This document shows, piece after piece, positions 839 to 21,710 of a DNA stretch of 27,476 nt (position 1 is its first letter; the number at the start of each line of letters is the position of its first letter). Made by a program: the position numbers and the translations under genes. The notes under the pieces were generated by a model that worked only from the letters and a program-made list of their open reading frames with translations, did not search any database and was not told where the DNA came from. Source of the DNA: Amoeboaphelidium occidentale (Eukaryota); the NCBI GenBank assembly GCA_023515795.1, contig JALGPX010000047.1:62001-89476 (forward strand). Direction: 5' to 3'.

Positions 839-2424
839 TTATTCGCTCAAGACTGCCTTAGGAGTTGGCCTTGTTATTGTGTAATAGACATGATATCCAA
901 CAGATTTTTTTCCAGGCTCACCAAGTCTTACTGCTTTCAAAACATAATCAGATTCCGTGAAACCACCTTGAATGTACTTTTCCCTTGCCATATAAACGAA
1001 GGATCTTCGTGTTAACTGAGATAAAGGAGCAGAAATGATGGCTTTGTACTCATCAGGTGTCGTAGCTTTGGTGAATTCAATTGTTTGATCAGCAGGAAGA
1101 TTCTCCTGTTTATCAAAAATGCCATCCAATACGGCTTTAGTTCTTGGNNNNNNNNNNNNNNNNNNNNGGAGCAGAAATGATGGCTTTGTACTCATCAGGT
1201 GTCGTAGCTTTTGTGAATTCAATTGTTTGATCAGCAGGAAGATTCTCCTGTTTATCAAAAATGCCATCCAATACGGCTTTAGTTCTTGGCTCCATGATAT
1301 TCTTCATTTTAATGGTTTCAAGTTCAGCAATGGGAAAGTCCGGAACAGAGTTCTTTACGAAATCAATGTGACCAATGATAACATCCACCGAGGATGCCTT
1401 CAAGTACGCGGTAGTTGGAACAGGCTTCCCATTGTGCTCCAACATTGGTTTGAACAAATTATCTGCTTCATCTTTGACAAATGCTTCCTTTTTGAACAAA
1501 GTATTGAACGTATGATCTTTGAGTTTCGCCTGCTTGACACCCGTAAAACCAGGAGGATTAAACATTTCACAACTAACAAACTGAACATCGAACGCCTTTG
1601 CTTCAGGTCTCCATAACGTCTCAGCATCGATATTGAACAAATAGGAATCGCTCTTGAGGTCGAGTCGTTTTTTAATCGCTGTCTGTTTCTTTGCGATATC
1701 TCCTTTTGCTTCAACCTGAAAGCCTCCAGGGATATCAACACCGGCATCATCAACAATTCCCTTGGAAGCTTTGAAGGGTGCCTCTGGAGTACCGAATATG
1801 GTACCATAANTCAATATTGAACAAATAGGAATCACTCTTGAGGTCGAGTCGTTTTTTAATCGCTGTCTGTTTCTTTGCGATATCTCCTTTTGCTTCAACC
1901 TGGAAACCTCCAGGGATATCAACACCGGCATCATCAACAATTCCCTTGGAAGCTTTGAAGGGTGCCTCTGGAGTACCGAATATGGTACCATAAATATTCT
2001 TTCGTGTTTCAGCATCAAGAAAGCTAGCTTTAATAGAATCAATAGCTCCCGCAGACTCCAATGAAGGCTTAACCGCTTCATCAACAACTTTCTCAGGAGT
2101 TCCTGCACCTGAAAAACAATTATTCTTGTTTCTTTTGTGCAAATGTTGTGCAATAGGAATTACAGACCTGTAATGATCGCATACACATTTGTCCTTCAAA
2201 CAAGCACACGAAGGATCAGAAGAACCAACACTGCATAACTTAACAGCAGCATCTGTTAAATCACAACCAACACATTCACACTTGAAATTTCCTCTTTCTG
2301 CTAGTTGTACTAGGATTGTTTGAACATTGAAACCAGAACTAGAACCAAGAAACATAGACACAGAACGCGCATTGCATTCAATAATAATACCAAATATAAA
2401 AATAATCAAGTTAGTTACCAACAT
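839..2424 (-). CDS. Secreted Cys-rich prepro-protein of unknown family (paralog A), ~419 aa after removing two assembly overlaps
   Basis: ATG at 2424, hydrophobic signal MLVTNLIIFIFGIIIECNA, CEC..C..C..CAC..CVC cluster, HLHKR site. The ORF pieces join in frame once the 142-bp and 184-bp gap overlaps are collapsed (1260 nt). It is homologous along its length to 7856..8995. Confidence 0.85.
1026..1289. repeat. Haplotype overlap duplication around N-gap 1148-1167 (offset 142 bp)
   Basis: 1026..1147 is repeated at 1168..1289 with one SNP (ttggtg/tttgtg). Confidence 0.88.
1627..1993. repeat. Haplotype overlap duplication around N at 1810 (offset 184 bp)
   Basis: 1627..1809 is repeated at 1811..1993 with about 4 SNPs. 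Confidence 0.88.
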
Positions 2425-2551
2425 GGTTTGAAAATATTGAATCGGATTTATGGGTTGGGTATTCAAGAAAGGATCCGAAGCCGTTCCGGTCCAATCAGAA
2501 AATACCTTTCACGCCAAGTTGCGAACTTCCGATTGATGTGCAAGCAGGATC

Positions 2552-2809
2552 CAGTATCCTGCCATCTGTAGAATTTCCCATGAAACTTGATAATGATTTC
2601 GCCGACGCTTTAAAGCGAGTTCGTTTGCAAGGTAGATTAAAGCTTTATATATTCAAGAAAGTCCAAAAGGAGATCAGAACTGGTTCATATTAGTTGTCTA
2701 GTTGAAATAAAATCTATTTTGTGAGATAAATTCATTAGTTGTCATGATTACTTCGAAACAGCAGTCGTCAAAAAATAATCTTATTTCTAAGGATACAGTT
2801 GGGTAGGAA
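2552..2809. other. Empty-site (deletion-allele) junction contig end
   Basis: 2552..2644 equals 2811..2903 and 2631..2809 equals 7197..7375. The two halves overlap in one copy of GGTAGATTAAAGCT (2631..2644), and the block ends at N 2810. Confidence 0.85.
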
Positions 2810-2889
2810 NCAGTATCCTGCCATCTGTAGAATTTCCCATGAAACTTGATAATGATTTCGCCGACGCTTTAAAGCGAGTTCGTTTGCAA

Positions 2890-5800
2890 GGTAGATTAAA
2901 GCTCTCTGAGCAAGCAGATTGACAGCTCGGCAACTCCTTTATCTCAGATTTCAAGCCTTGCGCACCTCGATTGATAACCAGTTTCAACATTCGCGATGGA
3001 TCAACTCACAGAATACAAAGAGCTTAAAGCAGTTCAGTAGAAAATGGGAAACTATAGCGCCCGACTAGACCGAATGGAAGGCGCTGGGATCGCGTTCTGC
3101 TGTTTCTGAAGTAAGTATGCGCTGATTTCGATATTCAGCATTATTCCTTGTCGATTAAAGATTCTGTCATTGAACTTTCAGATCATTTGGCCTTTCCTCC
3201 TGCAGAATACACGTTATCTTCTATTGATGGTTCCCATGCGATGCTGAATGTGATTTACCAACCACTTCCTATAGTTCCCCGTAGCACATCATCGCAAAGA
3301 TCATCAAAACCTCTAAAGAAACAGCGAGTTGACTCCTCTGACGGGAATGAGACGTTTGAAAAACTAATAATTCAACGGGATCAGCACTGCATGATCACTC
3401 GAAAATACAAGTCATTAAGAGCATCTCATATTGTTGTTCCTGCTTAGTGGATAGACCATCCTGATTTGAAGGATATACAACGGGGAGATATCAAAAAAAT
3501 TATAAGTTCTCGTGATGGTGGTGTTGATCATATTACTAACGGGATATTACTTCAGCGATCGCTTTCAGATGCATTTTACCGAGGAGACATTTCGCTTCAG
3601 TTTGTGGATGGGCATTTTTATTTTGTTTCAATTACCCCTGACTATGAATCAATTGATGGAATCAAAGTTGATGAATGCGTTTGTTCTCGCTGGGATGGTA
3701 CTTCTTGGTGGTGTCAAAAAAATAGCCCCAATCCTTATCTGATGGCATTTCATTTGCGAAATAGCGTTTTTGCTCCTTGTCGTGGTGCTTTCGGTTACGA
3801 TGAATGTGATATCGAAGATGTCGAAGAGTATTGAATGAATTAAACTGAGTCCACAAATGAAACAAGTCGAATGGAATCTAAAATTCTAAATTATTGGTCT
3901 TACTATGAGTGATTTAGAGAGTAAGTGAGATTGAAGTCCGGCAATGGAATATTATACTCTGAAACAGTACTTGAGACTGATTGCTACGGGAAACAACACT
4001 TTGATTATAATTAATTGAATTCACTTTATCAGTTTTCGCGATCGGAATCATTGATTGTGTGACTTTTCAGAGTGAGGTTTTATATTCCTGTTCAATCTTC
4101 TCGTGACTTACTAAGAATCGTTGAAATGGACAATATGATCTTCATAGCAACCAACCAGTTCCAAGAAAGCGGCCTGTGAAAACGGAGTAATGCCGTCGAG
4201 AGGGATGATCGTGTGTTGGCGTTCATGGAAGAGGTTGGCTTGTTTGAACCGTTATCGATGGTTGCTATGACGACATCCTCATCTTCTTTGATCAGTGAGA
4301 TCACAGTTCGTGAGAGTTCTGTACCGTCTGAGTGTATCAAGGATTGTTCGTTAGATCAAGGTTGACAACTGCTTATCGATAAGAGTGTACCTTGTGCTTT
4401 ACGACTAGTTGATAATAGAAGTCTTTTACAGAATCCAGAACTTACACAGTCTGCTCGAGGACCAGCCTCTAAACTTTTGAACGCTGCTGACAAACATCCA
4501 AAAGCGATGGTAACGTTGTTGTTAACTCCGTTGCAAACAACAAACCGTTTCAACTCCATTCTCGACAATCATCTGGTTCTTCCACAGCGAAATCTGGCAC
4601 ATAGTCATGACTTCCAAAAAAGCTGCCCTCGATGGTGTTAAAGAACTTATTGATAAGAAGGTTTGGGGTAAAAGGCTTGAATCATCATACAAGTTATCAA
4701 AGGAAGATTACGATAGGGTTGCGAATGCTTACAGGGATCTGGAGACAGAAATATCAGAGATAACTGGCAATAATGCAATTGGTATGCAGAATGAAGGTGT
4801 CGCAAATCCTTCTAAATACCTAAAAACTACTGTTTTGTCGTACTATAGACAGAAACAAAGAAAGGACTCGCTTGACACACCCATTTCCAAAAGGAAAAAA
4901 ACCCATATAGAATCGATCTTAAACAGGCCATCCACTTCTGGATCTTCTTCTATTACGGATCATGTACCTCCAGAAAGTTTGCCTGGTGTTGAAAATTATC
5001 ATGCCGAGACAAACCAGAAAGCTGAGAGTGTAGTTGACATGGATATAGACTCTGAAAATCTTATTGATAAAGACAGTATTAATGCAGACGCAAATGATGC
5101 CAAAGGGAATGTATCAGAAAAGTATGTTAATCTTTGATTATTCTCTGACTAGTTATAGAAACACAGAAATCTTGAAGTCTCCGGCACGCGCCATTAATGA
5201 AGTTCTTCATGATGATGCTACTGTGGACAATTTGGTTGGTCCTCCGAAAAGAGCCGATAGTCAAATATTTACGTCGAAACATTTGACTATTTATGGAAGC
5301 CAGTACAACATTGGAAGGTGCATAGTTCAAAAATGGCTGAAATATGTTCCTGGACTTCTAACTGGTGAATTTGATAACGTTAACCTCATTGTCATGGGGC
5401 CCAGCTCAAGGGATCTCAAATCTCAGTTTGAGGATGATTTTACTGCTTGGAACCGAAAACAGAGGGGAACCTATATTGTCAATCCTGTAATTACAAACAG
5501 CTCCTCTTTATTAAAACTAAGACACGAGTTTTTGGAGAATCTGAATAGTTCCTCGTTAAATGTAATCATTCATGATGAGGCGCATTGGGGAATTGCCAGT
5601 GATTCAAATATTAACTCATTTCTTTTGGATGTTAGTTGTAAAGTGGAAAATGATCCCACAATTGTTTTAGCTATTCTTTTTGTTTCAGCAACAATTGAGG
5701 TGATCACGAAAGTTAACAGATTTCCTGAAAGAACAGTGGATTGGACTGAACTAAAGGAGATGGACCAATTCCAAGCCAAAACTTACAGACACATTGGTGA

Positions 5801-7210
5801 ATTAAATTATGTTTATGATAACAGAACCACAGATATAACTTTGACCGAGGCCTCGACAATTGTGAGAGATGATTATTTAAACTTTTTCAATGGAGGATCA
5901 TCAGACTTTGCTGGTAAACTAATTAGTGATGTTGTGTATGATGACAAATTGTCTATGGCGATGATTAGAATGTCCAACACGGAGGATATGTTAACAGTAG
6001 TTGAAGCCATGAAAACCTGGTTAAAGGACACGGGCTGTTGGGGAAAAGTTTTTGCTTTATACTTAAATTCAGATTCTCTACCATTGTCGGAGCAGTTGAG
6101 ACAACAAGGAATGGAAAAATCAAGCACTTTAAAGTATAAATCTGTTCTTGACTTGAGTAATATCAAATGCTTTCTGTTTGTGATTGAAATGGTTCGTATG
6201 GGACAAAGAATTCCTTCGACTTGCAAATATTATGATGTCCGTAGCAGATATACCTCAAAGAAAGGCATATGGGCAACATATCTTCAAGATGTTGGCCGTT
6301 GCGCTGGACATAATAAGCCACGTGCTACTGTGTTTGTTACTGAAGGATTGGAGTTTCCCAGGTGGGATCAGCTGCTTAAAGAAACAGAGGAGCCTTCAGG
6401 AAGACATCCGGAATCTATAGAGGCCTGCGGAGAGAAAGGAGTTTATAGTAGATTGTTGAAGCATTACACGATTCTTAAAGCTGAACCACAGATTGGTAAA
6501 ACAGGCGCAATTTTGAGTACTCTTGAAATATTACAGAATTCTATCTTTAGAAACGCCAAGGCGAAAAAAGAACAATCATTTCCTAGTTCGTTACTTGTTG
6601 AATTAACCAAATTATATAGCACAATGGCAACTGAGAATCTTCAAGAGTTTATCAAAGTATTTCCAGGAGTATCCTTTCAGTTTTACCACCAAGAAATGAA
6701 AAAATCCAAGCAAGCGTGGATTCCTGATGAACCAAACTTGATTATTTGCCAATGGTTAATTGATAATTTGAAGCCAATAAGCGATAACCAGAAATTGTAT
6801 TTGGCAGATTGTGGTTGCGGTCCTTGCGGTATAACTGATGTCATGCGTAAGGATTTTGCCAATAACGAATTTTGGAAGAACATTGTTGTTTACGGATATG
6901 ATGTTGATCAGGAGATTAAAAAAATGGAATTAGGGCACTCTCCTGAGTTTAGAGGATTTGCTGGAAATATGTGTAGCCAAGAGGAACTAGACAGCTTTCA
7001 TTGTGTGGTGTTTTGTCTTTCTTTGTTTGAGGAGCAGATAACACGACACATAACTTGGGCCAAGAAAAGCTTAAAGATGAATGGTTACTTAATTATTGTA
7101 GACGTTCCAAGGAAATTCGAAGATGAAGAACGAGCACCTATTAAAGGAATTTCGAATCAAGTTGGACCTTTAGTACATGAAAGACAAGTAGCTAAGGGTA
7201 GATTAAAGCT
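2890..7210. repeat. 14-bp direct repeats GGTAGATTAAAGCT (2890..2903 and 7197..7210) bounding a 4307-bp presence/absence segment
   Basis: Exact 14-bp match at both ends, and the junction at 2631..2644 skips the intervening DNA. Confidence 0.85.
3024..3834 (+). pseudogene. Degenerate HNH endonuclease (HNH_2/PF13391 type, as found in Crinkler-like effectors)
   Basis: ORFs 3148..3447 and 3466..3834 are one frame split by TAG at 3445. They read QRDQHCMIT...ASHIVVP...VDHITNGILLQRSLSDAF...PNPYLMAFHL...CRG, the eukaryotic HNH_2 pattern RD..C..T..AHI.P..NG.LL...H..FD. There is a probable 28-nt intron at 3111..3138 and another in-frame TAG at 3066 in the upstream exon. The 5' limit is uncertain. Confidence 0.75.
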
Positions 7211-7259
7211 TTATATATTCAAGAAAGTCCAAAAGGAGATCAGAACTGGTTCATATTAG
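4607..7259 (+). CDS. SF2 helicase-like ATPase (permuted motif order) fused to an RRP8-like class I SAM methyltransferase; join(4607..5121,5159..7259), ~871 aa
   Basis: A 37-nt GTATGT..TAG intron (5122..5158) joins the two ORFs in frame. Helicase motifs: IIHDEAH (5574), FVSAT (5685), MVRMGQRIP, LQDVGR (6285), AEPQIGKTG (GKT 6495). Methyltransferase motifs: FYHQ..W..P (6684), ADCGCG (6807), GYD, VVFCLSL (7011), LKMNGYLIIVDV..KF. Confidence 0.82.
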
Positions 7260-7855
7260 TTGTCTAGTTGAAATAAAATCTATTTTGTGAGATAAATTCA
7301 TTAGTTGTCATGATTACTTCGAAACAGCAGTCGTCAAAAAATAATCTTATTTCTAAGGATACAGTTGGGTAGGAAGATGTGTTGTATGCGTGCTTGGACG
7401 GCAACGGATTTTCTGAACCCTAAGTGACGTTGGCACCACAAGCAGGGTCCCCATCTGAGGAAGGAAGTGACTTGAAGAGTGCCAACAAGTATTCGTTTGT
7501 TAAAGAGGTAGAAGTGCTTAAGGAAAGACTATACTTGAAACGACTGACGTATCGAGAATAAAGCCTGTTACCGAACTTAGAACACAGAGAGTCTTCTCGA
7601 GGACTAGACTATAAACTTTTGGTGGTGATATCCAATAAACTATGAGTTGCGACTCGTCTTAATCTCATCAAGTTCACATTAATCTCGACTCAACCGCTTA
7701 GATTCGATTTCTCACGAATTCCAAATTTAGCTCGCGGAGTTTGAAAATGCGACATTGATCTGCAAAATGTTCGCTCGTGATCACGCGATGCAACCCCGTG
7801 AAACGTGATTTCAACCCGGTTTACAAATTTTGTTCAAAATTCCCATAATCCAAAA

Positions 7856-8995
7856 ATGATATTTCCTTCCTCTTTCCTCTGCTTTGTCGCTACTCTATGC
7901 GCGCTTTCCTCCTTGGCTTCAGCGACTAAAAGCTCAGAATGCTCTAGAACAATCACAATCCAAGTTGATGATCGTATTCAGGAGTGTGAATGTACCAACG
8001 TTTGTGGTTCTCATAACTCTGCATTTTCTTCTTGTTTAAGAAATTCTCAAGATTCCTTTTGTGGCTGTTTGAGGGCTGCCTGTACATGTGAAGATCAAGG
8101 AACAATCATTCCGTTCCCGCGCCACTTATTCAAGAGAGCAAACATTAGATGTCCTAGCGATCAGGTTCGTGCTGAGTTTATGGATCCTATTGCAAGAGAT
8201 ACAGTGTTCAATGCGTTATTTGGCAATTCAAAGGGCATGTACAGCATTGAGGACGTGTCAGTTCAGCAAGGTTCGAAATCAGAGCATGGAAGGTTTCAAG
8301 TGGAAAGTACGGATAAAACGGCAATTAATTTGAAAAAATTAATGAAAAAATGGAAGTTTGATGGCGATTCCAGACTATTCAGGTTCGACCTTCAAAGCAT
8401 CTTTGATCCTGCTCAAGGCAAAATCACGGTTCAATGGATCGTGTTCGAAAAGCTGGCACCAGAAGACTTTCCAGAGGTCTCCGTGACAGCCTACAATGAT
8501 GAAATATTCGGCAAACTCTTTAATAAGAAATTCTTTCAACGTCATGGGAATTCATATCGAGTTAAGCAATCTATTGATGGAAGAGCTGTCACGAAGAATG
8601 ATTATGTTATTCCATCTGCTGTAGACTTGATTGCTTCTCATATTGAGTTTGTCGAGGAAGTTAGAAGCAATTTTAAATTGTCTGAGCTTCAATCTATTGC
8701 GATGAAGAATGTCATGGAACCTCGCACAGAAAAGGTTTTGCTTGAGATTTTAACAAACTCAGAGAATACTCAGTTGCCATTAACAATAACATTCAACGAT
8801 AATCCGGAAGAATATGAAAAACTTATGAAGACCCCACTTTCTGCATTGACCACGAGAACATTCAAGTATTTAACATCAAACAAAAAGATTAAAGGTGGCT
8901 TCGATAACAGTGATTACACTCTTGTTATTGATCAAGATGTTCAGGACGGCATTGGGGGAGGCTACACAATTGTTTACACGATTAACAGACAATAA
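7856..8995 (+). CDS. Secreted Cys-rich prepro-protein of unknown family (paralog B), 379 aa
   Basis: ATG at 7856, signal MIFPSSFLCFVATLCALSSLASA, CEC..C..C..CGC..CTC, HLFKR. It shares GxFQVE, MKN(V/I)MEPRT, PLSxLTxRxF, GGFxxSDYxL and GYxxxYTI with 839..2424. Confidence 0.88.
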   Translation: MIFPSSFLCFVATLCALSSLASATKSSECSRTITIQVDDRIQECECTNVCGSHNSAFSSCLRNSQDSFCGCLRAACTCEDQGTIIPFPRHLFKRANIRCPSDQVRAEFMDPIARDTVFNALFGNSKGMYSIEDVSVQQGSKSEHGRFQVESTDKTAINLKKLMKKWKFDGDSRLFRFDLQSIFDPAQGKITVQWIVFEKLAPEDFPEVSVTAYNDEIFGKLFNKKFFQRHGNSYRVKQSIDGRAVTKNDYVIPSAVDLIASHIEFVEEVRSNFKLSELQSIAMKNVMEPRTEKVLLEILTNSENTQLPLTITFNDNPEEYEKLMKTPLSALTTRTFKYLTSNKKIKGGFDNSDYTLVIDQDVQDGIGGGYTIVYTINRQ

Positions 8996-10428: not shown

Positions 10429-10523
10429 TCCGTAATTGAAAATCACAATTGACGAAGCTCTGATGAAAAAGATCGGCGAGTTGTTTCAAGATTGACGCCA
10501 CACAGAGAAGCTGATTAACAGAA
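10429..10523. promoter_or_regulatory. Putative bidirectional promoter between kinase and talin
   Basis: Only 95 bp separate the divergent ATGs. Confidence 0.55.
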
Positions 10524-13500
10524 ATGTCGACGGTTTCGCTTAAAGTCACAGTATCCGAACAGGGTATAACAAAGACCATGCAGTTCGCTGGTGATACGAC
10601 TATCAATGATGTATGTAAGGAGATCAGGGCCAAGATAGGTGAGACAGTCAATGTCAGCACTGATCATGGTCTCTTCTATCCTATTATATCAAAGTGGCTA
10701 TTGGCCAACAAGACTTTGGATTACTATGATCTAAAGACTGGTGACACAGTTGAGTACAAGAAAAAGCACAGAGCTTTGAGAGTTCGAATGATGGATGATA
10801 CAATCAAGACGGTGCTTATTGATGAATCGCACAATGTGGCCGATCTGGTTGTGAATGTCTGTCAGAAGATCGGTATATCAAATCCTGAAGAGTACTCATT
10901 GCAGGCTGAGAAAGCACTTAATGGTTCAAGAGACAATCTTGCCGAAGAGAAGAAGTGGTTGGGGCCTGAGAAGACATTGGCAGAACAAGGTGTAGTCGAA
11001 ACAGACATACTCTTGCTAAAGAAGAAGTTCTTCTTTAGTGACCAGAATGTTGATCGCAACGATCCTATCCAGTTGAATCTGTTGTATGTGCAATCCAGAG
11101 ATGCGATCGTCAGCGGTAAGCATCCGTGCACAATTGATGAAGCTGCACAATTAGCAGCCTTGCAGTGTCAAGTCCAGTATGGTAATCATGAGCCTGATAA
11201 ACACAAACCTGGGTTCATCAAGATCAAAGAGTTCGTGCCTCCGGAGTATCACAAAGACAAGAAGGAGTTGGAGAAGAAGATCTATCAAGAGCATCGCAAG
11301 TTGCAAGGTTTAACTGAATTGAATGCGAAATTCAGATATGTCCAATTATGTAGATCACTGAAGACCTATGGTGTTACTTTCTTTATGGTGAAGGAGAATG
11401 TTCCAAAGAAGAACAAGATGGTTCCGCGCTTGTTGGGTGTTACTAGAGACAGCATTATGAGATTAGATGCTGAAACTAAAGAAATTTTGAAGACTTGGCC
11501 TTTGACTACATTGAGACGTTGGGCTGCTGCTCCAAACAGTTTTACTTTAGACTTTGGTGATTACGCTGATTCTTACTACTCCGTTCAAACCTCTGAAGGA
11601 GAACCAATATCGCAACTTATTGGTGGCTACATTGATATCATTTTGAAAAAGAGAAAAGAAGCTTCAAGAAAAGTCGAAGAAGAAGAGGTTCAAGTTGCCA
11701 TCGCTGAAGACAATGTCAGGCCAGCTAAAGCGACTGCAGTCAATCTAAGCTCGCACAAAGTTGGGAGGGCAGTTGAAGTCAATGTTGCAAGTGCAGGTGT
11801 TGTATCCGATGATTCAGGCAAAATTGGATCGAGACAAGTTATCAAGAGAAAGAATCTTGCACAAGCGACAGAAGTTGACACTGTTCAATACAGTGCATAT
11901 GGATCTCAGCAAGCAGTCATGCAGAATATTAACAATGGATTTGCTGCTATTAATGCTGCAACGAATGAATTGACAGTAGCTACACAATTACCTCCAATTG
12001 GTAATGATCCTGCTTCGAAGCAATGGAAAGTTCAGACCATGGATGTGAATAAGCAGCTCATTGGCGCACAAGTTGCTGCACATCTTACTTCAACCGCTTC
12101 TGTTGTCACTATAGGAAGCGTCAACGATTCAGACTTCATAGATTTTGAACAATTGGCAGCTAATATTGCATCACTGTCTTCAAATTTGAATCAGATTACT
12201 TCAAGCACCAAAATGGTTGCTGCTCTTATGGATCAAATGCAAGGCGATAAAGTTTTGGAGGCGGCACGAGCATTTGCAGCCGCAACTTCATCACTCTTAC
12301 AGGGTATTCAACCTTTGATTACTGGAGAAGAATTCCACAACAACAATCCTTATAAAGCAGCCCTGTTGCAACAAGGTCAAGAAATTTCCAAGGCTGCATT
12401 CCAGTTGCTATTCAAGATTGGAGAAATTGAAATCCCACAACAGCAACAGCAAGAATTGATTGATTTGGCAAAGCTTGTTACCCAAGCTACTGCTGGTCTT
12501 GTTGCAAACGGTGTCAAGCCGTTAGCGATCGAGATCCAACCGAACCCACACTTGAGAGAAACACAACAATTTATTCTTGGCTCTGCTAGAGATGTAGCAA
12601 CTGCAGCTGAAGCTTTGGTCACCGTGTCTGTCATCACAGCTCCAGCCATTCATTTGGGTGTTTGTCAAGACCAAGTTATGCAAGGAACAGTTTCTTTGAG
12701 TGATGCATTGAATGCAATGAATGCTTCAGTAGATACCGTGAAGCAAGAAATTGGCGGCGACTCTAAAGGTGTATCTGAAATGGCTAAGCACGTCCAAAAA
12801 GTTATCAATGCGCTTGCAAGATTCATTGAGAAAGTCAGAGATCCTATGAAGAGCGTTGATGAAGCAGCTGAATCTAAGGCTAGCGTTTTTGATGCCGTAT
12901 TGAACGCTTCCTCCGAGCTGATTTACCAGCGTGATAATGTGCAACAAATTGTGGCAAATGCGAAAGAGCTTACTCTTGCCGGAACTCAACTTGTGAATTA
13001 TTTGAAGAAGAGATCCGATGAAGAAAGTGATCCAGATGAAAAGCAGAAGCTGATCTCTCAAGCCAAGGCTGTTGCCGAGAACATTCACAAGATTGTTGCA
13101 TTGGCCAAAGAATTAGCAAAGAATCCAAAAGATGAATCAAAACAAGCTCAATTGAGAGAAGCTATTGATGCCATTCAAGCATTAACAATTCAGGCTGCTG
13201 GCAAGGAAGCTAGAGATAGACTTTTCAAGAAACTGGTTGCCCAAGCGAAGCAACTTGCATCTGCAACTACCTCTCTTATTGCTGCTACAAAGAGTGCCGC
13301 ACAATCTAATCGTGACCAAGTGTCTCAAATTCAAGTCACCCAGGCTTCTAAGAAAGCAGCAGACTCAACAGTCAACATGGTTGTTGCGAGCAAATCATTG
13401 CTTACAAATGTCGAAGATCCTTCCAACCAATTGAAGTTAGTATCAGTGGCCAGAAGTGCTCTTTCCCCAACAACCGATCTTGTTGCTGCAGTTAAGACGG

Positions 13501-16500
13501 CCAGTTCTACTACAGTTGATTCATCAGCTCAAGAAAGTTTAATGGAAGGAGTGTATCAAGTCGAAGAAGCGATGAAAGCTCTGATTACAGTGTTGGACCA
13601 AGCAGAGAATGCATCAAGTGGTCTCGAATACGAAAGCGCTTTTGAAATTGTTAAACAAGTCAATGCTGACCTACAGCAGGCAAAAGAAATGGCCGCTGCT
13701 GGTAAACTTAGAATCATGGCTGGATACACTGCTGAATCTGCTCAACTGGAAGTATCAGGTAGTTCCAGGATTGTCGGATCTGCTATCTCCCAACTTGTTG
13801 CTGCTTCTAGTCAAGGAAATGAGAAACTTACCGGTGTTGCTGCGAGAGATACAGCAAATGCCCTTCTGGCTTGGACAACGGCTGTTCGCGCTCTTGCTGG
13901 AAGCTCGCAGGATGACAAGAAATTTCAAGAGCAACTTATTGGTAGTGCACAAAACCTTTCGAAGCATGTTTCGGATTTGCTTAACGGAGCGAAAGCAGTT
14001 GTCAAACTCCAGAAATCCGAAGCAAATAATGTTGACTCTGCTCAGTCCTCCTTGATGAACTCAGCTAAAGAAACTAACGATTTGATTTTTGCCGTTGTTG
14101 ATACTTTGCCTGGGAACCGTGATGTCGAGCGCGCATTACAAGTTGTTATGGCTGGTATTGAAATTCTTGAAACTGGTCCGAAAGTTAAGCCTGTTGCTGG
14201 TGAGTCGATCCAAATGTCCCAGAACAGGCTTAATGTTGCAGCATCTGGTTTGGCCGCTGCAGTTAATTCTGTGATTGCAGCAAGCTCCAGTGGGAATCCG
14301 GATGAATTGACCAAAAGTGCAGCTCAATTCGAAGACAAATACAACAAACTCGTCACCGCCGCTCAAGGTCTTATTGCGCAGACCAACGACGAGAAAGCAA
14401 AAGCAGAAATTATGTCTTACGTCAAAAGTGTTGCTGAAGCTAGTTCTGGGCTTCTACAAAGCTCAAAGAGTTCAAGATCAGATTTGAATGGTCCGAATGG
14501 AATCTCATCACTCACTGTTGCGGCTAAAAACATGGCTGGATCCATTTCGAAACTGTTGGAAGTATGCACCACAAGTGCTCCTGGCGTTTCAAGTGCCAAC
14601 CAGGCTGAACAGAAACTATTGCTGGCTGGACAAAAACTTACCACTTACAATGATCCTTCTATTGTATCTAATTTGTCTTACTTTGATTGCATTAAGCAAA
14701 CAGTTGATGTTCAGAAAGCTGTATTGCAGTCAACCGCCGCAGCATCGATCGCAGGCAAGGAGAATGATGGAGAGAAACTTGGAAAGACATTGTTGGATAT
14801 TTCTGATGCAATCGAGAAGCTTGCTGAAACTTGTGCTAAAGCAGCATATCTTATCGGTGTCAGTGATAGGAGCTCTATTCCTGGGCAGCCAGCACTAGTA
14901 GACCAACAGGCTGTTGTCGATAGCTCCAATGAAATCAAGTCAGCCTTAACTAAAATGAATGATGGCAAAAGCAATCAACAGACAGTTCTTCAAGCAGCTA
15001 GCGCTATTGCTAAACATACCGCTCTCTTGTGTAATGTCGGAAAACAGGCTTCAACAAACGCTGGTATCAGTGCAAACGGAAAGCAGCAATTCCAGTTGGC
15101 TGCGAAGAATATTGCAACAACAACTGCAGCTTTGGCCCAAGATATCAAAGCTTTAGCAACAGCTCCTTCTGCGTCGACAAGAGAAAATGCCAGTAAAAGC
15201 TCTGCTCCTTTACTTGAAGCTGTTGAGAGTCTGGTTGCGCTTGCAAACAGTCCAGAATATGGCGCCACTCCACCAACATTGTCTCCAATGGCTCAAGCAA
15301 AACAGAAACCGCTTATCGATACATCCAAGAATGTTATCAGTCTCACGCAAGATTTGGTTTCTACCGGTAAAGCTATATGCTCCTCTGGATCCGTCGATGC
15401 AAGTCAAGTTCATTTGCTAACTACTCAAAGCAAAGCTGTCAGCGATTCATTGAAGTTCTTAACTACAACCGTCAAACAAAGTGCTCCAGGACAACAAGAT
15501 ATCCAGGCCGCTATTGAAAAAGTCAGCGGAGTTGCGGCTCAACTTGAAAGCGCATCATTGCACGTTGAAGTAGATGAAACATCCGCATCAGGAGGAAATG
15601 CAGTTTCAGGCTCAAATATGAATTTGGCAGCTGCTTCAGCTACGGGTCTAGATCAGTCATTGAAGGACAAGTTACTCGACAACGCAAAGGCATTAGCTTC
15701 ATTGATTCACATGATTGCTGATTCTGCTAAAGGAAAAATTGAACAAGGACAATCGCCTCTGGAAGCAGCGGGAAATCTTTCTTACGCAGTAATTCAACTC
15801 GCTGAAACATTTCAACCAATGGGAGTGACAGCTATCGGGTTGTCGCAGTCAACGTCTAGCAAACCTTTCCAGAAGTCTGTTTTAGAAGGAGTCAAACGAA
15901 TTGCTGATGATACATTGACATTCTTATATGCAGCAAAAGACGCTGGTGGCGATGCCAAAAATGCTGAAAGTCATGCCAAGATTGATAGTACGATGAATTT
16001 ATTGACTGCATCTTTGAACAAGATGGCTCTCAAACTTGAAGGATCCACCAAAGGATCAGCAGAAATATCAAAGGTTTCATCGAATATTCAGGACACTTTG
16101 CGCTCTATTTCAGAAAACAGACCTTCATCTGCTGCCAATGATTCTTACCAACAATACGCTACTCAATTATTTTCGAACGGGAAAAACCTGGTCGATATTG
16201 TTGGAGATGTTATCACCAAATCTGTCAAGCCTGATAAAGATGTCTTGTTGCCAGTTATTGAGCAGATAGGAAAAGTGTATAACTTGATTGTGAAGAACGC
16301 TGTGAATGGATCTAATTGTGTTACTGATCCAAAAGTCAAGCAAAGTTTATTGGATGTCTCACGAGAACTGGGAGGCAGCACCTTGAAACTTGTAGATGCC
16401 GTCAAAAGCGCTTTGATTTCCGCTTCAAGCGGTGATGGAGTCGTGGATCCTAATTCAAAACAGAAATTAACGAACGCTTCGAAAGAAGTTACCCAGAACG

Positions 16501-18269
16501 TTTCAAAACTCATGGCAGTATCAAAAGAAGGTTCCAAATCTCTCACTGCCTGTGAAAACGTCGTGGAACTTATTGGCGATGCGTTGGCTGATCTTGAATC
16601 TCATATCATCTTTGCTCAAGCAGGACAGTTGGATTCAAACGATAAGGAGAAATTCGACGCTTATCAAGAAGAGCTACAAAGTTTGGCGAGAGAATTAGTT
16701 GAAAACTCGAAAGCGCTTGTGTCACATGGAGCTATGGGTAAATCGGATGACCTGGCTGTCTCTGCAACTCTAGCTGGCGAGACCCTTTTGTCTTTGAAAG
16801 AATCCACAAAGCTTGCCGCATTTGCTCTAACATCTAATGATAGTGGCACACAAGAAGAACTCTTATCGCAATGCCGTGATGTCGCAAAGGCATTATCACA
16901 TCTCCTTAAGATGGCAATCGATCTTGGAACAAAGCCATTGAAGCCGCTTAAAGGTACAATCAACGCCACGACGATTCCAACAGATTTCGTCCAGTTTAGA
17001 GAAGCAGCAAAAGATTTGGTTGGCCAAGTTGGAGATTTCATTAAGACTGTAAAATACGTTGGAGATGAATCTTCGCGTGGTGCCAGGGCATTAGAAAGCT
17101 CCGCTCGTGAAATTGAAAGAGCCGTTCAGATTTTGGAGGACGAATCGCCAGCAGAAGGAACCGCACTGCCTGAAGAGGTCGCTCAAATTGCAAAATCTGT
17201 TGCAGCAGCCTCTGCGAATCTCGTTTCAGTCGCTTCCAAAGGTATCAACAATTTGACACAAGATGAATTAGTCACTTCCACTGCAGAACTCAAGAAAGTC
17301 CTTCTTGATCTCACAAGAGCTGGTAAGGCTTCTACTGAGCAAGCTCCAGAAGATGCAAAAGCTTTGATGCATGGGGCAATCAAATCTGTTGCTGATGCTA
17401 CTTGCTTGCTTTTGAACAAAGTTAAGCTTATTGCAGAAGGGCAATCATCAGGAAAATCAGAAGTTCAGTATGCTGCCAAGGAAGTTGCTTCTAGTGTTGG
17501 TAAAGTAGTGGACGCAGCAGGTGAGCTGATTCCAGGTGGTTATGTGGATCCTAATGATCCTAATGTTGTGGCAGAACGAGAACTTCTTGCTGCAGCTAGT
17601 TCTATTGAAGCCGCCGCAAGGAAACTCGCCATGCTTAAACCTCCTGAAAGACCTAGAGAGGCAAACGAAGATCTCAACTTTGAAGAACAGATTCTGGAAG
17701 CAGCAAAAGCTATTGCATCTGCCACTTCTGCACTCATCAAGTCTGCTACTTCGGCTCAGAGAGAAATTGTCGCGAAAGGAAAAGTCAGCAACAAGAGAGA
17801 AGACCAGATGTACTTTTCAGATGGTACCTGGTCCGATGGCTTAGTATCTGCTGCAAAAAATGTCGCCAGTGCTACTGGAGATTTATGTGAAGCTGCAAAT
17901 GCTGCTGTCAAGGGCGAAATTCAAAGAGAAAGAGTCATTGTATCTGCGCGAAATGTGTCTAGCTCAACAATACAACTATTGCATTCAGCGGCAGCAAGAA
18001 CTGATGCCAACTCTCAGTCTCAAGTAAGATTGAAAGCTGCAGGAAAGAGTGTCACTCAAGCAACAGAAGCTCTTGTGAAGGCTGCAGAGCAAACGATGGC
18101 TTATGAAGAGGAAGCCAACGTTTCTTCTTTGATGAAAGGAAAAGGAACAAACGCTATGCAAAAAGCTCAGGAATTGGAAGCAGCAGCAAAAGTGTTGCAG
18201 ATGGAAAAGGAGCTGGAGAATGCGAGAATGAAGTTGGCAGGAATGAGAAAAGCAAAGTACAAGAAATAA
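10524..18269 (+). CDS. TLN: Talin (FERM F0-F3 head, Ala-rich helical rod, I/LWEQ actin-binding tail), 2581 aa, intronless
   Basis: Head motifs KTMQF, KKFFFSDQNVDRNDPIQLNLLYVQSRDAI, CRSLKTYGVTFF, WPLTTLRRWAAAPNSFTLDFGDY and QLIGGYIDIILKK. Tail motifs AERELLAAASSIEAAARKL, FEEQILEAAKAIA, WSDGLVSAAK and EKELENARMKLAGMRKAKYK. Confidence 0.98.
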   Translation: MSTVSLKVTVSEQGITKTMQFAGDTTINDVCKEIRAKIGETVNVSTDHGLFYPIISKWLLANKTLDYYDLKTGDTVEYKKKHRALRVRMMDDTIKTVLIDESHNVADLVVNVCQKIGISNPEEYSLQAEKALNGSRDNLAEEKKWLGPEKTLAEQGVVETDILLLKKKFFFSDQNVDRNDPIQLNLLYVQSRDAIVSGKHPCTIDEAAQLAALQCQVQYGNHEPDKHKPGFIKIKEFVPPEYHKDKKELEKKIYQEHRKLQGLTELNAKFRYVQLCRSLKTYGVTFFMVKENVPKKNKMVPRLLGVTRDSIMRLDAETKEILKTWPLTTLRRWAAAPNSFTLDFGDYADSYYSVQTSEGEPISQLIGGYIDIILKKRKEASRKVEEEEVQVAIAEDNVRPAKATAVNLSSHKVGRAVEVNVASAGVVSDDSGKIGSRQVIKRKNLAQATEVDTVQYSAYGSQQAVMQNINNGFAAINAATNELTVATQLPPIGNDPASKQWKVQTMDVNKQLIGAQVAAHLTSTASVVTIGSVNDSDFIDFEQLAANIASLSSNLNQITSSTKMVAALMDQMQGDKVLEAARAFAAATSSLLQGIQPLITGEEFHNNNPYKAALLQQGQEISKAAFQLLFKIGEIEIPQQQQQELIDLAKLVTQATAGLVANGVKPLAIEIQPNPHLRETQQFILGSARDVATAAEALVTVSVITAPAIHLGVCQDQVMQGTVSLSDALNAMNASVDTVKQEIGGDSKGVSEMAKHVQKVINALARFIEKVRDPMKSVDEAAESKASVFDAVLNASSELIYQRDNVQQIVANAKELTLAGTQLVNYLKKRSDEESDPDEKQKLISQAKAVAENIHKIVALAKELAKNPKDESKQAQLREAIDAIQALTIQAAGKEARDRLFKKLVAQAKQLASATTSLIAATKSAAQSNRDQVSQIQVTQASKKAADSTVNMVVASKSLLTNVEDPSNQLKLVSVARSALSPTTDLVAAVKTASSTTVDSSAQESLMEGVYQVEEAMKALITVLDQAENASSGLEYESAFEIVKQVNADLQQAKEMAAAGKLRIMAGYTAESAQLEVSGSSRIVGSAISQLVAASSQGNEKLTGVAARDTANALLAWTTAVRALAGSSQDDKKFQEQLIGSAQNLSKHVSDLLNGAKAVVKLQKSEANNVDSAQSSLMNSAKETNDLIFAVVDTLPGNRDVERALQVVMAGIEILETGPKVKPVAGESIQMSQNRLNVAASGLAAAVNSVIAASSSGNPDELTKSAAQFEDKYNKLVTAAQGLIAQTNDEKAKAEIMSYVKSVAEASSGLLQSSKSSRSDLNGPNGISSLTVAAKNMAGSISKLLEVCTTSAPGVSSANQAEQKLLLAGQKLTTYNDPSIVSNLSYFDCIKQTVDVQKAVLQSTAAASIAGKENDGEKLGKTLLDISDAIEKLAETCAKAAYLIGVSDRSSIPGQPALVDQQAVVDSSNEIKSALTKMNDGKSNQQTVLQAASAIAKHTALLCNVGKQASTNAGISANGKQQFQLAAKNIATTTAALAQDIKALATAPSASTRENASKSSAPLLEAVESLVALANSPEYGATPPTLSPMAQAKQKPLIDTSKNVISLTQDLVSTGKAICSSGSVDASQVHLLTTQSKAVSDSLKFLTTTVKQSAPGQQDIQAAIEKVSGVAAQLESASLHVEVDETSASGGNAVSGSNMNLAAASATGLDQSLKDKLLDNAKALASLIHMIADSAKGKIEQGQSPLEAAGNLSYAVIQLAETFQPMGVTAIGLSQSTSSKPFQKSVLEGVKRIADDTLTFLYAAKDAGGDAKNAESHAKIDSTMNLLTASLNKMALKLEGSTKGSAEISKVSSNIQDTLRSISENRPSSAANDSYQQYATQLFSNGKNLVDIVGDVITKSVKPDKDVLLPVIEQIGKVYNLIVKNAVNGSNCVTDPKVKQSLLDVSRELGGSTLKLVDAVKSALISASSGDGVVDPNSKQKLTNASKEVTQNVSKLMAVSKEGSKSLTACENVVELIGDALADLESHIIFAQAGQLDSNDKEKFDAYQEELQSLARELVENSKALVSHGAMGKSDDLAVSATLAGETLLSLKESTKLAAFALTSNDSGTQEELLSQCRDVAKALSHLLKMAIDLGTKPLKPLKGTINATTIPTDFVQFREAAKDLVGQVGDFIKTVKYVGDESSRGARALESSAREIERAVQILEDESPAEGTALPEEVAQIAKSVAAASANLVSVASKGINNLTQDELVTSTAELKKVLLDLTRAGKASTEQAPEDAKALMHGAIKSVADATCLLLNKVKLIAEGQSSGKSEVQYAAKEVASSVGKVVDAAGELIPGGYVDPNDPNVVAERELLAAASSIEAAARKLAMLKPPERPREANEDLNFEEQILEAAKAIASATSALIKSATSAQREIVAKGKVSNKREDQMYFSDGTWSDGLVSAAKNVASATGDLCEAANAAVKGEIQRERVIVSARNVSSSTIQLLHSAAARTDANSQSQVRLKAAGKSVTQATEALVKAAEQTMAYEEEANVSSLMKGKGTNAMQKAQELEAAAKVLQMEKELENARMKLAGMRKAKYKK

Positions 18270-18303: not shown

Positions 18304-20061
18304 TCAGCCTTGAAATTCCAGAAGTTGTAGAATTAGAGATTCCTTTTCAGCCAAAAACTCTGGCGCAACCAGTTTATCATGAATATGTTCAAGCAAATAA
18401 CGAAGAGCTGAAGTAAAATCATTCTTCTTCAATAACGAAACATACTCATCTCTTAAATAGTACATGTCCACGTAGTCATATGGAATTGATAGTTCAATTA
18501 ATTCAAGTAAATCCTTTGTTTGCTGTTTACTATCATAACTATCTCCTGCTCTGATAGAATCAAACACGAGTAGTTTCTTCGCAAGAGTCTTTCCCGTAAA
18601 CGCATCTCTTAATTGATAAAGTATTGTTCTCACACGTTCAAGAAGCGCTTCAGTTTCTTCAGATGTCAACTTTTCCAAAACATCTACTGGTGGCTGGTTT
18701 CTTGATCTTCGCTCTGAAACAGCAAGAATAGATTCTTTCTTAACAGTCTTTTGCTTCTTTGGCTTTGAACCGTCCTTGCTTTCAGTCTTCTTTTTCTTTG
18801 TTCCTCCCTTTTTAGTTGAAGGCTTTGGAACAACNNNNNNNNNNNNNNNNNCTTTCTTAACAGTCTTTTGGTTCTTTGGCTTTGAACCGTCCTTGCTTTC
18901 AGTCTTCTTTTTCTTTGTTCCTCCCTTTTTAGTTGAAGGCTTTGGAACAACCTCGATTTGAGTGCAATCCTCTTCAGGTTTCAACCTCTCATTATTCTCC
19001 CTAAACAGAATTAATCCCATTATCCCCGAAAAGACTTACTTTTGTTCGTCTGCTTCTTCTTCGGCTTCCCTTTCGCGTTTTCTAGAACTTGGTACAGGTT
19101 CAGAACCATTTAAACAGTCTGTTTCTTCAGCCGGCACAGACTCCATCGGGATATCACCAGGATTTTCTGTTGTAGACTCTTCTTGTTCAATTTCGCAGAC
19201 AGTAAAAGCGACAGCCACCGGAATTACGTCTTCGTGTGAAGCTNTCTGTTTCTTCTTCGGCTTCCCTTTCGCGTTTTTTAGAACTTGGTACAGGTTCAGA
19301 ACCATTTAAACAGTCTGTTTCTTCAACAGGCACAGACTCCACAGGCACGTCACCAGGATTTTCTGTTGTAGACTCTTCTTGTTCAATTTCGCAGACAGTA
19401 AAAGCGACAGCCACCGGAATTACGTCTTCGTGTGAAGCTTCAACCTTTGGCTCGACTAACTGTTCCACAACATAACTTTCATTCACAGCGGCATTCTCTT
19501 CGAGGATATCAGCTGGCGCAGTATCAGCATCTTGAGGCGCAATTGATTCCTCTTCGGGTTCAACATGAACCGTAGACTCAATGTGATCCCAAACTTTGTC
19601 CAAGTACATTGACAAGGTTGAATTCGTAACAATCGCACCATATCTCTTAGNGTCTTCGTGTGAAGCTTCAACCTTTGGCTCGACTAACTGTTCCACAACA
19701 TAACTTTCATTCACAGCGGCATTCTCTTCAAGGATATTAGCTTGCGCAGTATCAGCATCTTGAGGCGCAATTGATTCCTCTTCGGGTTCAACATGAACCG
19801 CAGACTCAATGTGATCCCAAACTTTGTCCAAGTACATTGACAAGGTTGAATTCGTAACAATCGCACCATATCTCTTAGCGCTCTTGCCAACATTGCCTTG
19901 CTCTATCGCTTTCTTTACAGCATCCTTTTGCTTACTATTGAAACCATCATATGTCTCAAGTAATTCCAACACTAGGAAAATGAATAAATGCCTACAAATA
20001 AAACTTTAATACCTTGCGCTTCCGTTAGCTTTTCGTTTGAAGTCTTGTTAATTAGGACCAT
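18304..20061 (-). CDS. Hypothetical protein (acidic/Lys-rich linker, conserved helical C-terminal domain), paralog of 20733..21710; exons 20061..20013, 19971..19040, 19000..18304 (includes three assembly overlaps)
   Basis: ATG at 20061. GT-AG introns at 20012..19972 (41 nt) and 19039..19001 (39 nt) both restore frame. The C-terminus LLELIELSIPYDYV..FTSALRYLLE..APEF matches the neighbouring paralog. Confidence 0.75.
18735..19848. repeat. Three haplotype overlap duplications around N at 18835-18851, 19244 and 19651
   Basis: Tandem ~100-220 bp near-identical copies each abut an N and differ by SNPs (e.g. GDIPMESVPAEE vs GDVPVESVPVEE). Outer limits are approximate. Confidence 0.8.
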
Positions 20062-20624: not shown

Positions 20625-20732
20625 ATAAAGTCTTAATTTGTCTCTGTGATACTTTAAATCTGCGCCACTCAAGAATCGCTTGTTTCATTGATATCAGCTG
20701 AACTCTTGATAAAAAAGATCCTTCTTGTAAGA

Positions 20733-21710
20733 ATGAGTGATATCAACGAGAAGTTAAAGAAAGTTCTGGCAAAGAGCAAGAAGTACAACATTGAAGATAA
20801 GCTTGCTATTATAGCTGCTATTGCAAAGAAGAGCGAGAACACACAGATTCACGATGCGATCAATGATCTAGGGGATGATAGTCCAACTTCTTACATTGAA
20901 ACAGTGTTGAGTATAATTCATCAGGTTGTCAAAGAGAAGGAAAATAAAGCTGCATCAGCAAGCGCTCGTAAGTCTGCTAAATCCTCACCTTCCAAGAGTC
21001 CAAAGAGAGCGGTTCAGCAAGAAGAAAGATATGATGATGATCGTCCATCCAAAGCAAGTCCTTCAAAGAAGAGCAAGAAAAGTCCAATGCCGGATTCAAA
21101 AACAAGAAGAAGCTCTACACCGTCTCCTCGCAAGCCTAAACCTAATCCAGCTTCGTTGTCAGCAGCAGCTTCACCAAGAACTCCAGTTCAATTCAAATTG
21201 CTACCAGAACCAGGAAGGACTTGGTATGTTATGTTGACTGAGAATGCTAACGATGCTGATGATGATGTTCATGGTTCTCGTCGTTCAAGGCGTTTGAAAG
21301 GTCAAGTCAAAATGGATTTGCGCCATGTTAAAGGATTCAAGCCTGACTTTGATAAGACCACTATGAACATGATCAAGGAATTTGCTGTTGATTACTTTGA
21401 TGCGTTATGTAATGGTATTGAGCTGAATGATAAGCCACGCGTCGAATATGAAGAGATATTGACTGCGGGTATCAAGGACGCAGAAGATTTACAGGATTTA
21501 TTATTATCGCTTGATCTTGCTATTCCGTCAGAGTACGTTAATGCTGAGTATGATCGCAACATCTACGAATGCTTCCTAAACACTTACCAGTTCTCTGAAG
21601 CTCTAAAGTATCTGGTTGAAGCAACATTGGCAGAATATTTAGAACCTGAATTCAACAGAGGTTTAAAGAAATACTTGAAAGATTTGGCTACTTATGACTT
21701 TACATGCTGA
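20733..21710 (+). CDS. Hypothetical protein (Ser/Pro/Lys-rich linker, helical C-terminal domain), 325 aa, paralog of 18304..20061
   Basis: Long intact ORF from ATG 20733 with many SP/SPK motifs. C-terminus LLLSLDLAIPSEYV..FSEALKYLVE..EPEF. Confidence 0.8.
   Translation: MSDINEKLKKVLAKSKKYNIEDKLAIIAAIAKKSENTQIHDAINDLGDDSPTSYIETVLSIIHQVVKEKENKAASASARKSAKSSPSKSPKRAVQQEERYDDDRPSKASPSKKSKKSPMPDSKTRRSSTPSPRKPKPNPASLSAAASPRTPVQFKLLPEPGRTWYVMLTENANDADDDVHGSRRSRRLKGQVKMDLRHVKGFKPDFDKTTMNMIKEFAVDYFDALCNGIELNDKPRVEYEEILTAGIKDAEDLQDLLLSLDLAIPSEYVNAEYDRNIYECFLNTYQFSEALKYLVEATLAEYLEPEFNRGLKKYLKDLATYDFTC

Follow-up and report, generated by a model that had tools for sequence, protein, structure and literature searches.

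The window analysed here, 27,476 nucleotides (nt) of the genome of the algal parasitoid Amoeboaphelidium occidentale (contig JALGPX010000047.1, positions 62,001 to 89,476), carries a gene for a superfamily 2 (SF2) helicase in which the Walker A motif comes after motif VI and which is fused to a methyltransferase (MTase) resembling the rRNA-modifying enzyme RRP8. Judging from the sequence, we favour on balance the reading that its product is an accessory ATP-driven enzyme that opens nucleic acid, more probably DNA, and methylates it, most plausibly leaving a mark like m1A (adenine methylated at N1).

The spliced product of 4607–7259 (+) has the 871 amino acids (aa) given by an initial annotation made from the sequence, encoded in two exons that are separated by a predicted 37-nt GT..AG intron. 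Its first 843 residues are identical to those of the NCBI model MP638_000186, which omits the last 28, continues into the downstream gene and is chimeric. The gene has a GC content of 0.38 and 0.34 at third codon positions (GC3), at the low end of, yet near, the values of four neighbours. Exon 1 contains KRKK (aa 95–98; 4889–4900), which we take, from its general consensus, to be a candidate nuclear localisation signal. Residue labels such as K447, E140 and D581 below follow the numbering of P0001 (window 5160–7256).

The motor matches the Pfam family cpSF2-GREB1 (PF20692) with 56 bits against a cut-off of 26.2 (E 3.7e-15), in line with the suspected link to GREB1, a protein known from human cancer. 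The only GK[TS] in the 871-aa protein is at residue 618, after DEAH (311) and after motif VI, and the order II–VI–I is found in 70/70 distinct proteins that show all three motifs, a set gathered by similarity to the A. occidentale protein; none of the 70 has a GK[TS] within 160 aa upstream of motif II. All motifs lie where the initial annotation placed them, and its statement that a lone GKT follows motif VI with none preceding DEAH is correct. In a 69-row alignment the catalytic residues are retained almost throughout (Q 54/56, D139 67/67, E140 66/67, SAT 68–69/69, G379 66/66, R380 65/66, K447 66/67, T448 64/67), the ATPase motifs being more than 90% conserved in the permuted-SF2 family alignment. 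The segment IYGSQYNIGR, named initially as a possible alternative P-loop, reads instead as this conserved Q motif, which stays N-terminal. The description of the domain as circularly permuted therefore holds in one part: motif I has been relocated after motif VI, but the Q motif has not moved, residue 2 of RadD aligns with model residue 36, and the model has the relocated Walker-A helix packed against the Q helix. The rearrangement is the relocation of one Walker-A strand-loop-helix and not a strict circular permutation; partial duplication followed by reciprocal loss would explain it. Structure comparison by VIA-align matched the motor to RadD (Z 14.8, root-mean-square deviation (rmsd) 5.1, 293 aligned, model 36–408 to chain 2–372) and further to FANCM, DRH-1, Ino80 and Mfd. 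In the ESM Atlas the clusters closest to the permuted helicase part are ResIII-like ones from nucleocytoviruses and bacteria (0.96), which serves as a lead only.

Structure modelling predicts that the C-terminal Walker-A unit completes the ATP site of RecA1, the packing that the initial annotation had proposed to look for. The AlphaFold2 model was built on a 17-row alignment (mean predicted local distance difference test score (pLDDT) 80.9, predicted template-modelling score (pTM) 0.65). RecA1 (30–212) and the Walker-A unit (424–466) were then modelled as separate chains in the presence of ATP and Mg, without the alignment, in a procedure whose mark was attained by 51/78 solved complexes and 2/108 mismatched pairs. 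The Walker-A unit scored 0.81, against 0.15 for the best of three controls, but this pass may owe something to likeness to solved SF2 folds. The runs shared at least 90% of contacts with a partner pLDDT of at least 77. In the predicted complex, strand 435–439 pairs with the motif III strand 170–175, and helix 447–462 lies on helix 52–59 (the Q helix) and the motif II strand, which is the site of motif I in ordinary SF2 enzymes. As a modelling result, the docking shows fold complementation and not activity. When the motif I columns were returned to between the Q helix and motif Ia, the profile score rose against 28/36 ordinary SF2 proteins.

The C-terminal domain was recognised by Pfam Methyltransf_8 (PF05148) with 43 bits against a cut-off of 27 (E 5.3e-11), and nucleomethylin (PDB 2ZFU) is its best MTase structure by sequence (E 2e-16, runner-up 2e-4), in agreement with the RRP8-like assignment made at the outset. 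With RRP8/nucleomethylin it has in common the fold, the YH..W helical cap, DxGCG, the acidic SAM (S-adenosylmethionine) residue and VFCLSL; the DxGxG glycines (50/54) and D581 (43/47) are conserved in the 69-row alignment. Unlike RRP8, whose m1A site is helix 25.1 of LSU rRNA, it is joined to a motor. RRP8/NML is described as making m1A (10.1101/313874).

The helicase-MTase gene is not the housekeeping RRP8, as the initial annotation had held, because a separate canonical RRP8 is present in the annotation of the same organism (MP638_004639, 231 bits on PF05148) and because the gene is missing from about half of the chromosomes (see below). In a tree of 30 MTase domains, including 20/37 fused MTases, 3 RRP8 rows and 2/5 outgroups, the A. 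occidentale domain groups with other fused MTases (91), and the approximately unbiased (AU) test rejects its grouping with the three RRP8s (p 9e-10, with long branches and a quick method). The fused MTases do not form one clade in this tree (3 changes), which is compatible with a single origin. A database search with the MTase part alone returned only the two near-identical proteins, and a search for viral RRP8-like proteins found none.

Other genomes carry this architecture too. Relatives numbered 28 at 90% clustering and 147 among 50% representatives, a few of the latter being plain RRP8, and the family is scattered among eukaryotes, with hosts that include Lithocolla, Adineta ricciae, Planoprotostelium, Pelomyxa, Microstomoeca and Mastigella. 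All 49 long matches that were scanned contain PF20692; TAGT occurs in 6, OTU in 3, and a bromodomain and WD40 in 1 each. Sorted by C-terminal end, 67 rows with a complete helicase comprise 40 with an MTase, 7 with TAGT, 1 with a TFIIS ribbon and 19 with neither, counts that are tilted to MTase forms since the starting protein itself bears an MTase; 14/19 of the last group have fewer than 100 residues after GKT and are probably truncated. In one member, a tail named OTU stands in for the MTase. The MTase-fused architecture, which the initial annotation had suggested looking for elsewhere, is widespread and makes up an apparently undescribed branch of an established Pfam family. This permuted-SF2 family was reportedly defined by Iyer et al. 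in 2013. Our literature search found no description of an MTase-fused permuted SF2, although the 2013 paper was outside its coverage and may already show one; term counts over the available text of PMC4738411 gave no mention of GREB1 or Rrp8. Two members from the rotifer Adineta ricciae (P0009, P0167) carry the UniRef label "Ribosomal RNA-processing protein 8", likely a mis-annotation.

GREB1-like proteins (PF20692 with PF20691, the TAGT domain) belong to the same permuted family and have the same motif order. They differ in having a C-terminal TAGT glycosyltransferase (GT) where the A. occidentale protein has an RRP8-like MTase (no match to PF20691 at E up to 1), and in size, the present protein being less than half that of GREB1. 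The GREB1 helicase is described as catalytically inactive (PMC7968844, PMC6163654), whereas motifs I, II, III and VI are intact here. TAGT and MTase forms occupy opposite sides of one branch (98). An ancestral MTase fusion, from which GREB1 arose by a TAGT swap, is favoured by the midpoint-rooted tree (TAGT clade 98 inside MTase rows, quick method) and contradicted by rooting on five Z1 helicases, where the root falls within TAGT and the MTase rows lie beyond a branch of 80; because the two rootings disagree, no direction of exchange is claimed.

Z1 helicases (PF10593) share with the motor the motifs QxGKT, L..QT..RL (motif Ia), DDEA/DEAH, TAT/SAT and an R.FG-like motif VI, and are collinear with it once motif I is moved back; they are prokaryotic, of canonical order and without a fused MTase. 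Against a profile of the five Z1 members, the restored order gave 96% over 167 columns compared with 78% over 82 for the permuted order. When each Z1 protein was compared singly, the ranks were 1, 3, 12, 16 and 30 among 36, other SF2s following closely, and the low rank of three of the five makes the link weak. PF10593 did not match the protein at E up to 1, and no restriction-modification neighbours were seen in the window. The five Z1 proteins contain the motif DThhQXuRhFG, and helicases with this motif are described in restriction-modification operons (PMC2292703). A Z1-type ancestry of the permuted motor is a suggestive lead. The PADLOC defence models gave a match of 35 residues and 19 bits, short of full length, and PHROGs gave nothing.

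A search with RRP8 led to bacterial proteins in which zinc-ribbon repeats, an SF2 helicase of normal motif order and an RRP8-like domain are joined, from Bacteroidota metagenome-assembled genomes and from plasmids of Crinalium and Rhodococcus. PF05148 matches the Bacteroidota fusions with E about 1e-35. The fusion was found in 1/301 genomes of one phylum, a sporadic and partly plasmid-borne distribution. These proteins are annotated merely as zinc-ribbon proteins, and a paper on them was not found in the literature search. Their zinc-ribbon repeats are also found in phage endonucleases, and DUF4379 is reported from viral endonucleases (PMC5513546); the proteins are candidates for a modification or defence enzyme. 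Like the A. occidentale protein, they combine an SF2 motor and an RRP8-like MTase in one chain, but their helicase is only weakly similar to the permuted one (HHalign 36–63%) and their MTases form a clade of their own (95). Descent of the eukaryotic fusion from them was considered but is not supported, the helicase similarity amounting to 8–11 bits around motifs II–III. Since the bacterial and permuted helicases show no close similarity, motor and RRP8-like writer were probably assembled twice, independently.

One permuted member is virus-like. On the gene-dense metagenome locus L002 (GC 27%), a permuted helicase that has 32% identity to that of A. occidentale and is placed in its sub-clade (90) is fused to a TFIIS zinc ribbon; its gene adjoins a SNF2/ResIII-type helicase gene. 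At the DNA level this ribbon shares 82% identity with the TFIIS gene that stands alone on IMG/VR locus L022 and whose ATG start corresponds to ATA in the fusion; L022 also encodes PolB, D5, UDG and FtsJ. From their gene content, both loci are presumably nucleocytovirus-like. Pattern searches with 117 viral and 121 genome matches gave no permuted member from IMG/VR or prokaryotes. PF20692 was found in 0/301 genomes, where the controls were silent too; neither result proves absence. The viral or mobile origin raised in the initial annotation is supported only in part, by the giant-virus-like member and a patchy, dispensable distribution, which give no direction of transfer.

Depth was taken from run X1, a possible source of this DNA: its contigs are at 58 (2874–4222) and 52 (4392–7226) across the segment that holds the gene, compared with 107 and 106 in the flanks. 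This shows that the gene is missing from about half of the chromosomes, through either a heterozygous deletion or a mixed culture. The deletion allele keeps just the last codons of the gene, and was assembled in tandem with the full allele, which accounts for a perfect 179-nt copy of the gene's 3' end at 2631–2809. A 46-nt contig of depth 58 joins 2615–2660, with fewer than 31 letters on each side; this falls below the bridging rule, yet it is the product expected of a 31-mer graph at a junction of this kind. The 179-nt direct repeat had been considered as transposon ends or a target-site duplication, which was rejected in favour of this tandem assembly. The right copy of a 14-nt repeat bounding the half-depth segment lies in the gene's conserved last strand, a strand also present in an 89%-identical relative, so the difference between alleles is a deletion and not an insertion. 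The separate RRP8, the half-depth deletion and the patchy hosts show the gene to be dispensable and accessory.

The half-depth segment also contains a broken HNH_2-like gene (3115–3834; stop at 3445–3447; E 0.003, below the cut-off), which resembles the HNH domains of Crinkler-type proteins. A multicopy interspersed repeat occurs at 4195–4480 and at about 7480–7620 (copies 77% over 69 nt), its summed contig depth reaching about 3000 compared with about 105. The segment is flanked by diverging Cys-rich paralogues at 839–2508 (-) and 7802–8995 (+), 27% identical over 169 aa, with hydrophobic N-termini and no Pfam match; they are possibly secreted.

In the mechanism that we propose, the rewired SF2 motor, with its ATPase motifs intact, would bind nucleic acid, more likely DNA, and move along or open it, and the fused RRP8-fold domain would use SAM to methylate a base, adenine N1 being the most plausible site. 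Folding back of the C-terminal Walker-A unit into RecA1 is predicted to give a normal ATP site and would also tie the MTase directly to RecA1. Adenine N1 is buried in the base pair, and a duplex-opening or protein-stripping motor would therefore be needed. Because the mark would block pairing, it would suit action against nucleic acid that is foreign or selfish, or else a chromatin mark specific to the lineage. DNA is indicated by the best-scoring canonical motors, which are Z1-type and other DNA-acting SF2s; by the alternative effector TAGT, described as akin to DNA-base glycosyltransferases (PMC7968844); and by the restriction-modification context of Z1-type helicases, the phage-endonuclease zinc ribbons of the bacterial fusions and the one bromodomain member.

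Several points weigh against the DNA-directed open-and-methylate proposal. Among its relatives, the only ones characterised have RNA (RRP8) or protein (the GREB1 GT, estrogen receptor alpha) as their target, not DNA. Motif VI has one arginine instead of two. Although 2ZFU is the top-ranked MTase in VIA-align (Z 15.7, rmsd 3.8, 190 aligned, residues 474–699), it is ahead of unrelated small-molecule MTases by less than 1 Z (15.7 vs 15.2). RRP8's "FRxxNExLY" and terminal "YKKR" signatures have been lost from the domain, which over 178 aa shares 27% identity with the host RRP8; because of these two differences its base specificity may differ from that of RRP8.

The nearest characterised MTase being an rRNA m1A enzyme, the motor could instead remodel RNA or ribonucleoprotein (viral, transposon, nascent transcript or a second rRNA site) while the MTase writes m1A there, a version that we consider rather unlikely. 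The TFIIS ribbon of the virus-like member would fit it by pointing to a transcription complex, as would the DEAH-box RNA helicase Prp22, the top Foldseek row, but the Foldseek matches to helicases are of low quality (rmsd 17, TM 0.3), most neighbours by sequence profile and by VIA are DNA motors, and the canonical rRNA task is already covered by the separate RRP8. Quite improbable is a protein-directed writer, anchored by the motor on chromatin or RNA, in the manner of the GREB1 GT, which is described as glycosylating estrogen receptor alpha (PMC7968844). OTU, in the three scanned members and the one OTU-named tail, would be a protein-acting partner, and the RRP8 basic tail has been lost; against this, the RRP8-type helical cap (YH..W) is retained, and keeping every part of a motor conserved just to provide an anchor would be expensive, the motor of GREB1 itself being described as dead. 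That the gene is a decaying, horizontally acquired passenger, functionless in its present host, is very improbable despite its deletion on about half of the chromosomes and its position beside a broken HNH gene and multicopy repeats, since the frame is open, the intron present and the motifs all intact, and the 89%-identical copy in another data set is likewise intact, conservation being higher in the helicase (91%) than in the MTase (86%).

The coordinates of the gene, its variable segment and the related loci are collected in Table 1. The window is eukaryotic, with a talin-like open reading frame (ORF), a protein kinase, Vfa1 and mitochondrial L23. In this aphelid the talin-like ORF (10515–18269; 2,580 aa, intron-free) was recognised by eye. 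Two Lys-rich ORFs, 18304–19035 (-) and 20658–21710 (+), have similar C-terminal regions (…YV…EY…F..AL.YL.E…) and no Pfam match above cut-off, and may form a small paralogous family. Ten N gaps (620, 1148, 1810, 2810, 18835, 19244, 19651, 24566, 25091 and 25812) are each flanked by near-identical 100–290-nt duplicates and are assembly artefacts, at least one arising from two alleles.

Table 1. Features of the helicase-MTase gene, its variable segment and related loci (positions in the window unless a locus is given)
Feature	Position	Strand	Remark
Exon 1	4607..5121	+	171-aa N-terminal region, second half low-complexity, no Pfam match
Intron (predicted)	5122..5158	+	37 nt, GTATGT...TTATAG; same splice in NCBI model P0002
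Exon 2	5159..7259	+	Single open frame spanning helicase and MTase
RecA1 core	5289..5693	+	Motif I strand and helix of its own not within it
Q motif	5289-5324	+	In RecA1 core
Motif Ia	5379-5429	+	In RecA1 core
Motif II, DEAH	5574-5585	+	In RecA1 core
Motif III, SAT	5685-5693	+	In RecA1 core
RecA2	5955..6311	+	Holds invariant R270
Motif V	6177-6215	+	In RecA2
Invariant DxR	6234-6242	+	In RecA2
Motif VI, QDVGRCAGH	6285-6311	+	In RecA2
Relocated Walker-A unit	6441..6545	+	Strand, PQIGKT loop, helix; predicted completion of RecA1
GKT	6495	+	Within relocated Walker-A unit
RRP8/nucleomethylin-fold SAM-dependent MTase	6579..7256	+	YH helical cap, DCGCG, D581, VFCLSL
MTase motifs	YH 6684; ADCGCG 6804; VFCLSL 7008	+	
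Half-depth segment	2904..7210	.	4.3 kb, absent from other allele
14-nt repeat GGTAGATTAAAGCT	2890-2903 and 7197-7210		Bounds half-depth segment
Deletion-allele junction	2615..2809	+	Assembled in tandem with full allele
Permuted SF2 + TFIIS	L002:263-2008		In-frame fusion
Stand-alone TFIIS-like gene	L022:9977-10318		IMG/VR
DUF723/DUF4379 + SF2 + Methyltransf_8	L026:668-4555; L027:638-4555; L029:391-4209		Bacterial
Zinc-ribbon (DUF723/DUF4379) + SF2 + Methyltransf_8	L049:3433-6843; L050:5374-9624; L051:5614-9654		Plasmid loci

To our knowledge, an enzyme that deliberately writes m1A on DNA would be new. A bolder and doubtful extension is that the family forms a class of eukaryotic motor-coupled DNA N1-adenine methyltransferases, in which a motor of restriction-modification descent swaps writers (RRP8-like, glycosyltransferase, TFIIS, OTU) and travels between protists, basal fungi, rotifers and giant viruses, serving in conflicts as a weapon that puts pairing-blocking m1A on foreign DNA. 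If this extension is true, the class would stand beside the dead helicase of GREB1 as its active counterpart, and together with the bacterial fusions it would give RRP8-type enzymes a DNA-acting branch. The protein provides an example of an SF2 ATPase with its P-loop unit predicted to be supplied from the far C-terminus and its Q motif in place, and it points to RRP8-type MTases that work with a motor in eukaryotes and also, by what seems a separate origin, in bacteria. As a compact (about 700 aa) and apparently active relative of the GREB1 helicase, it would make the role of the GREB1 module testable in vitro.

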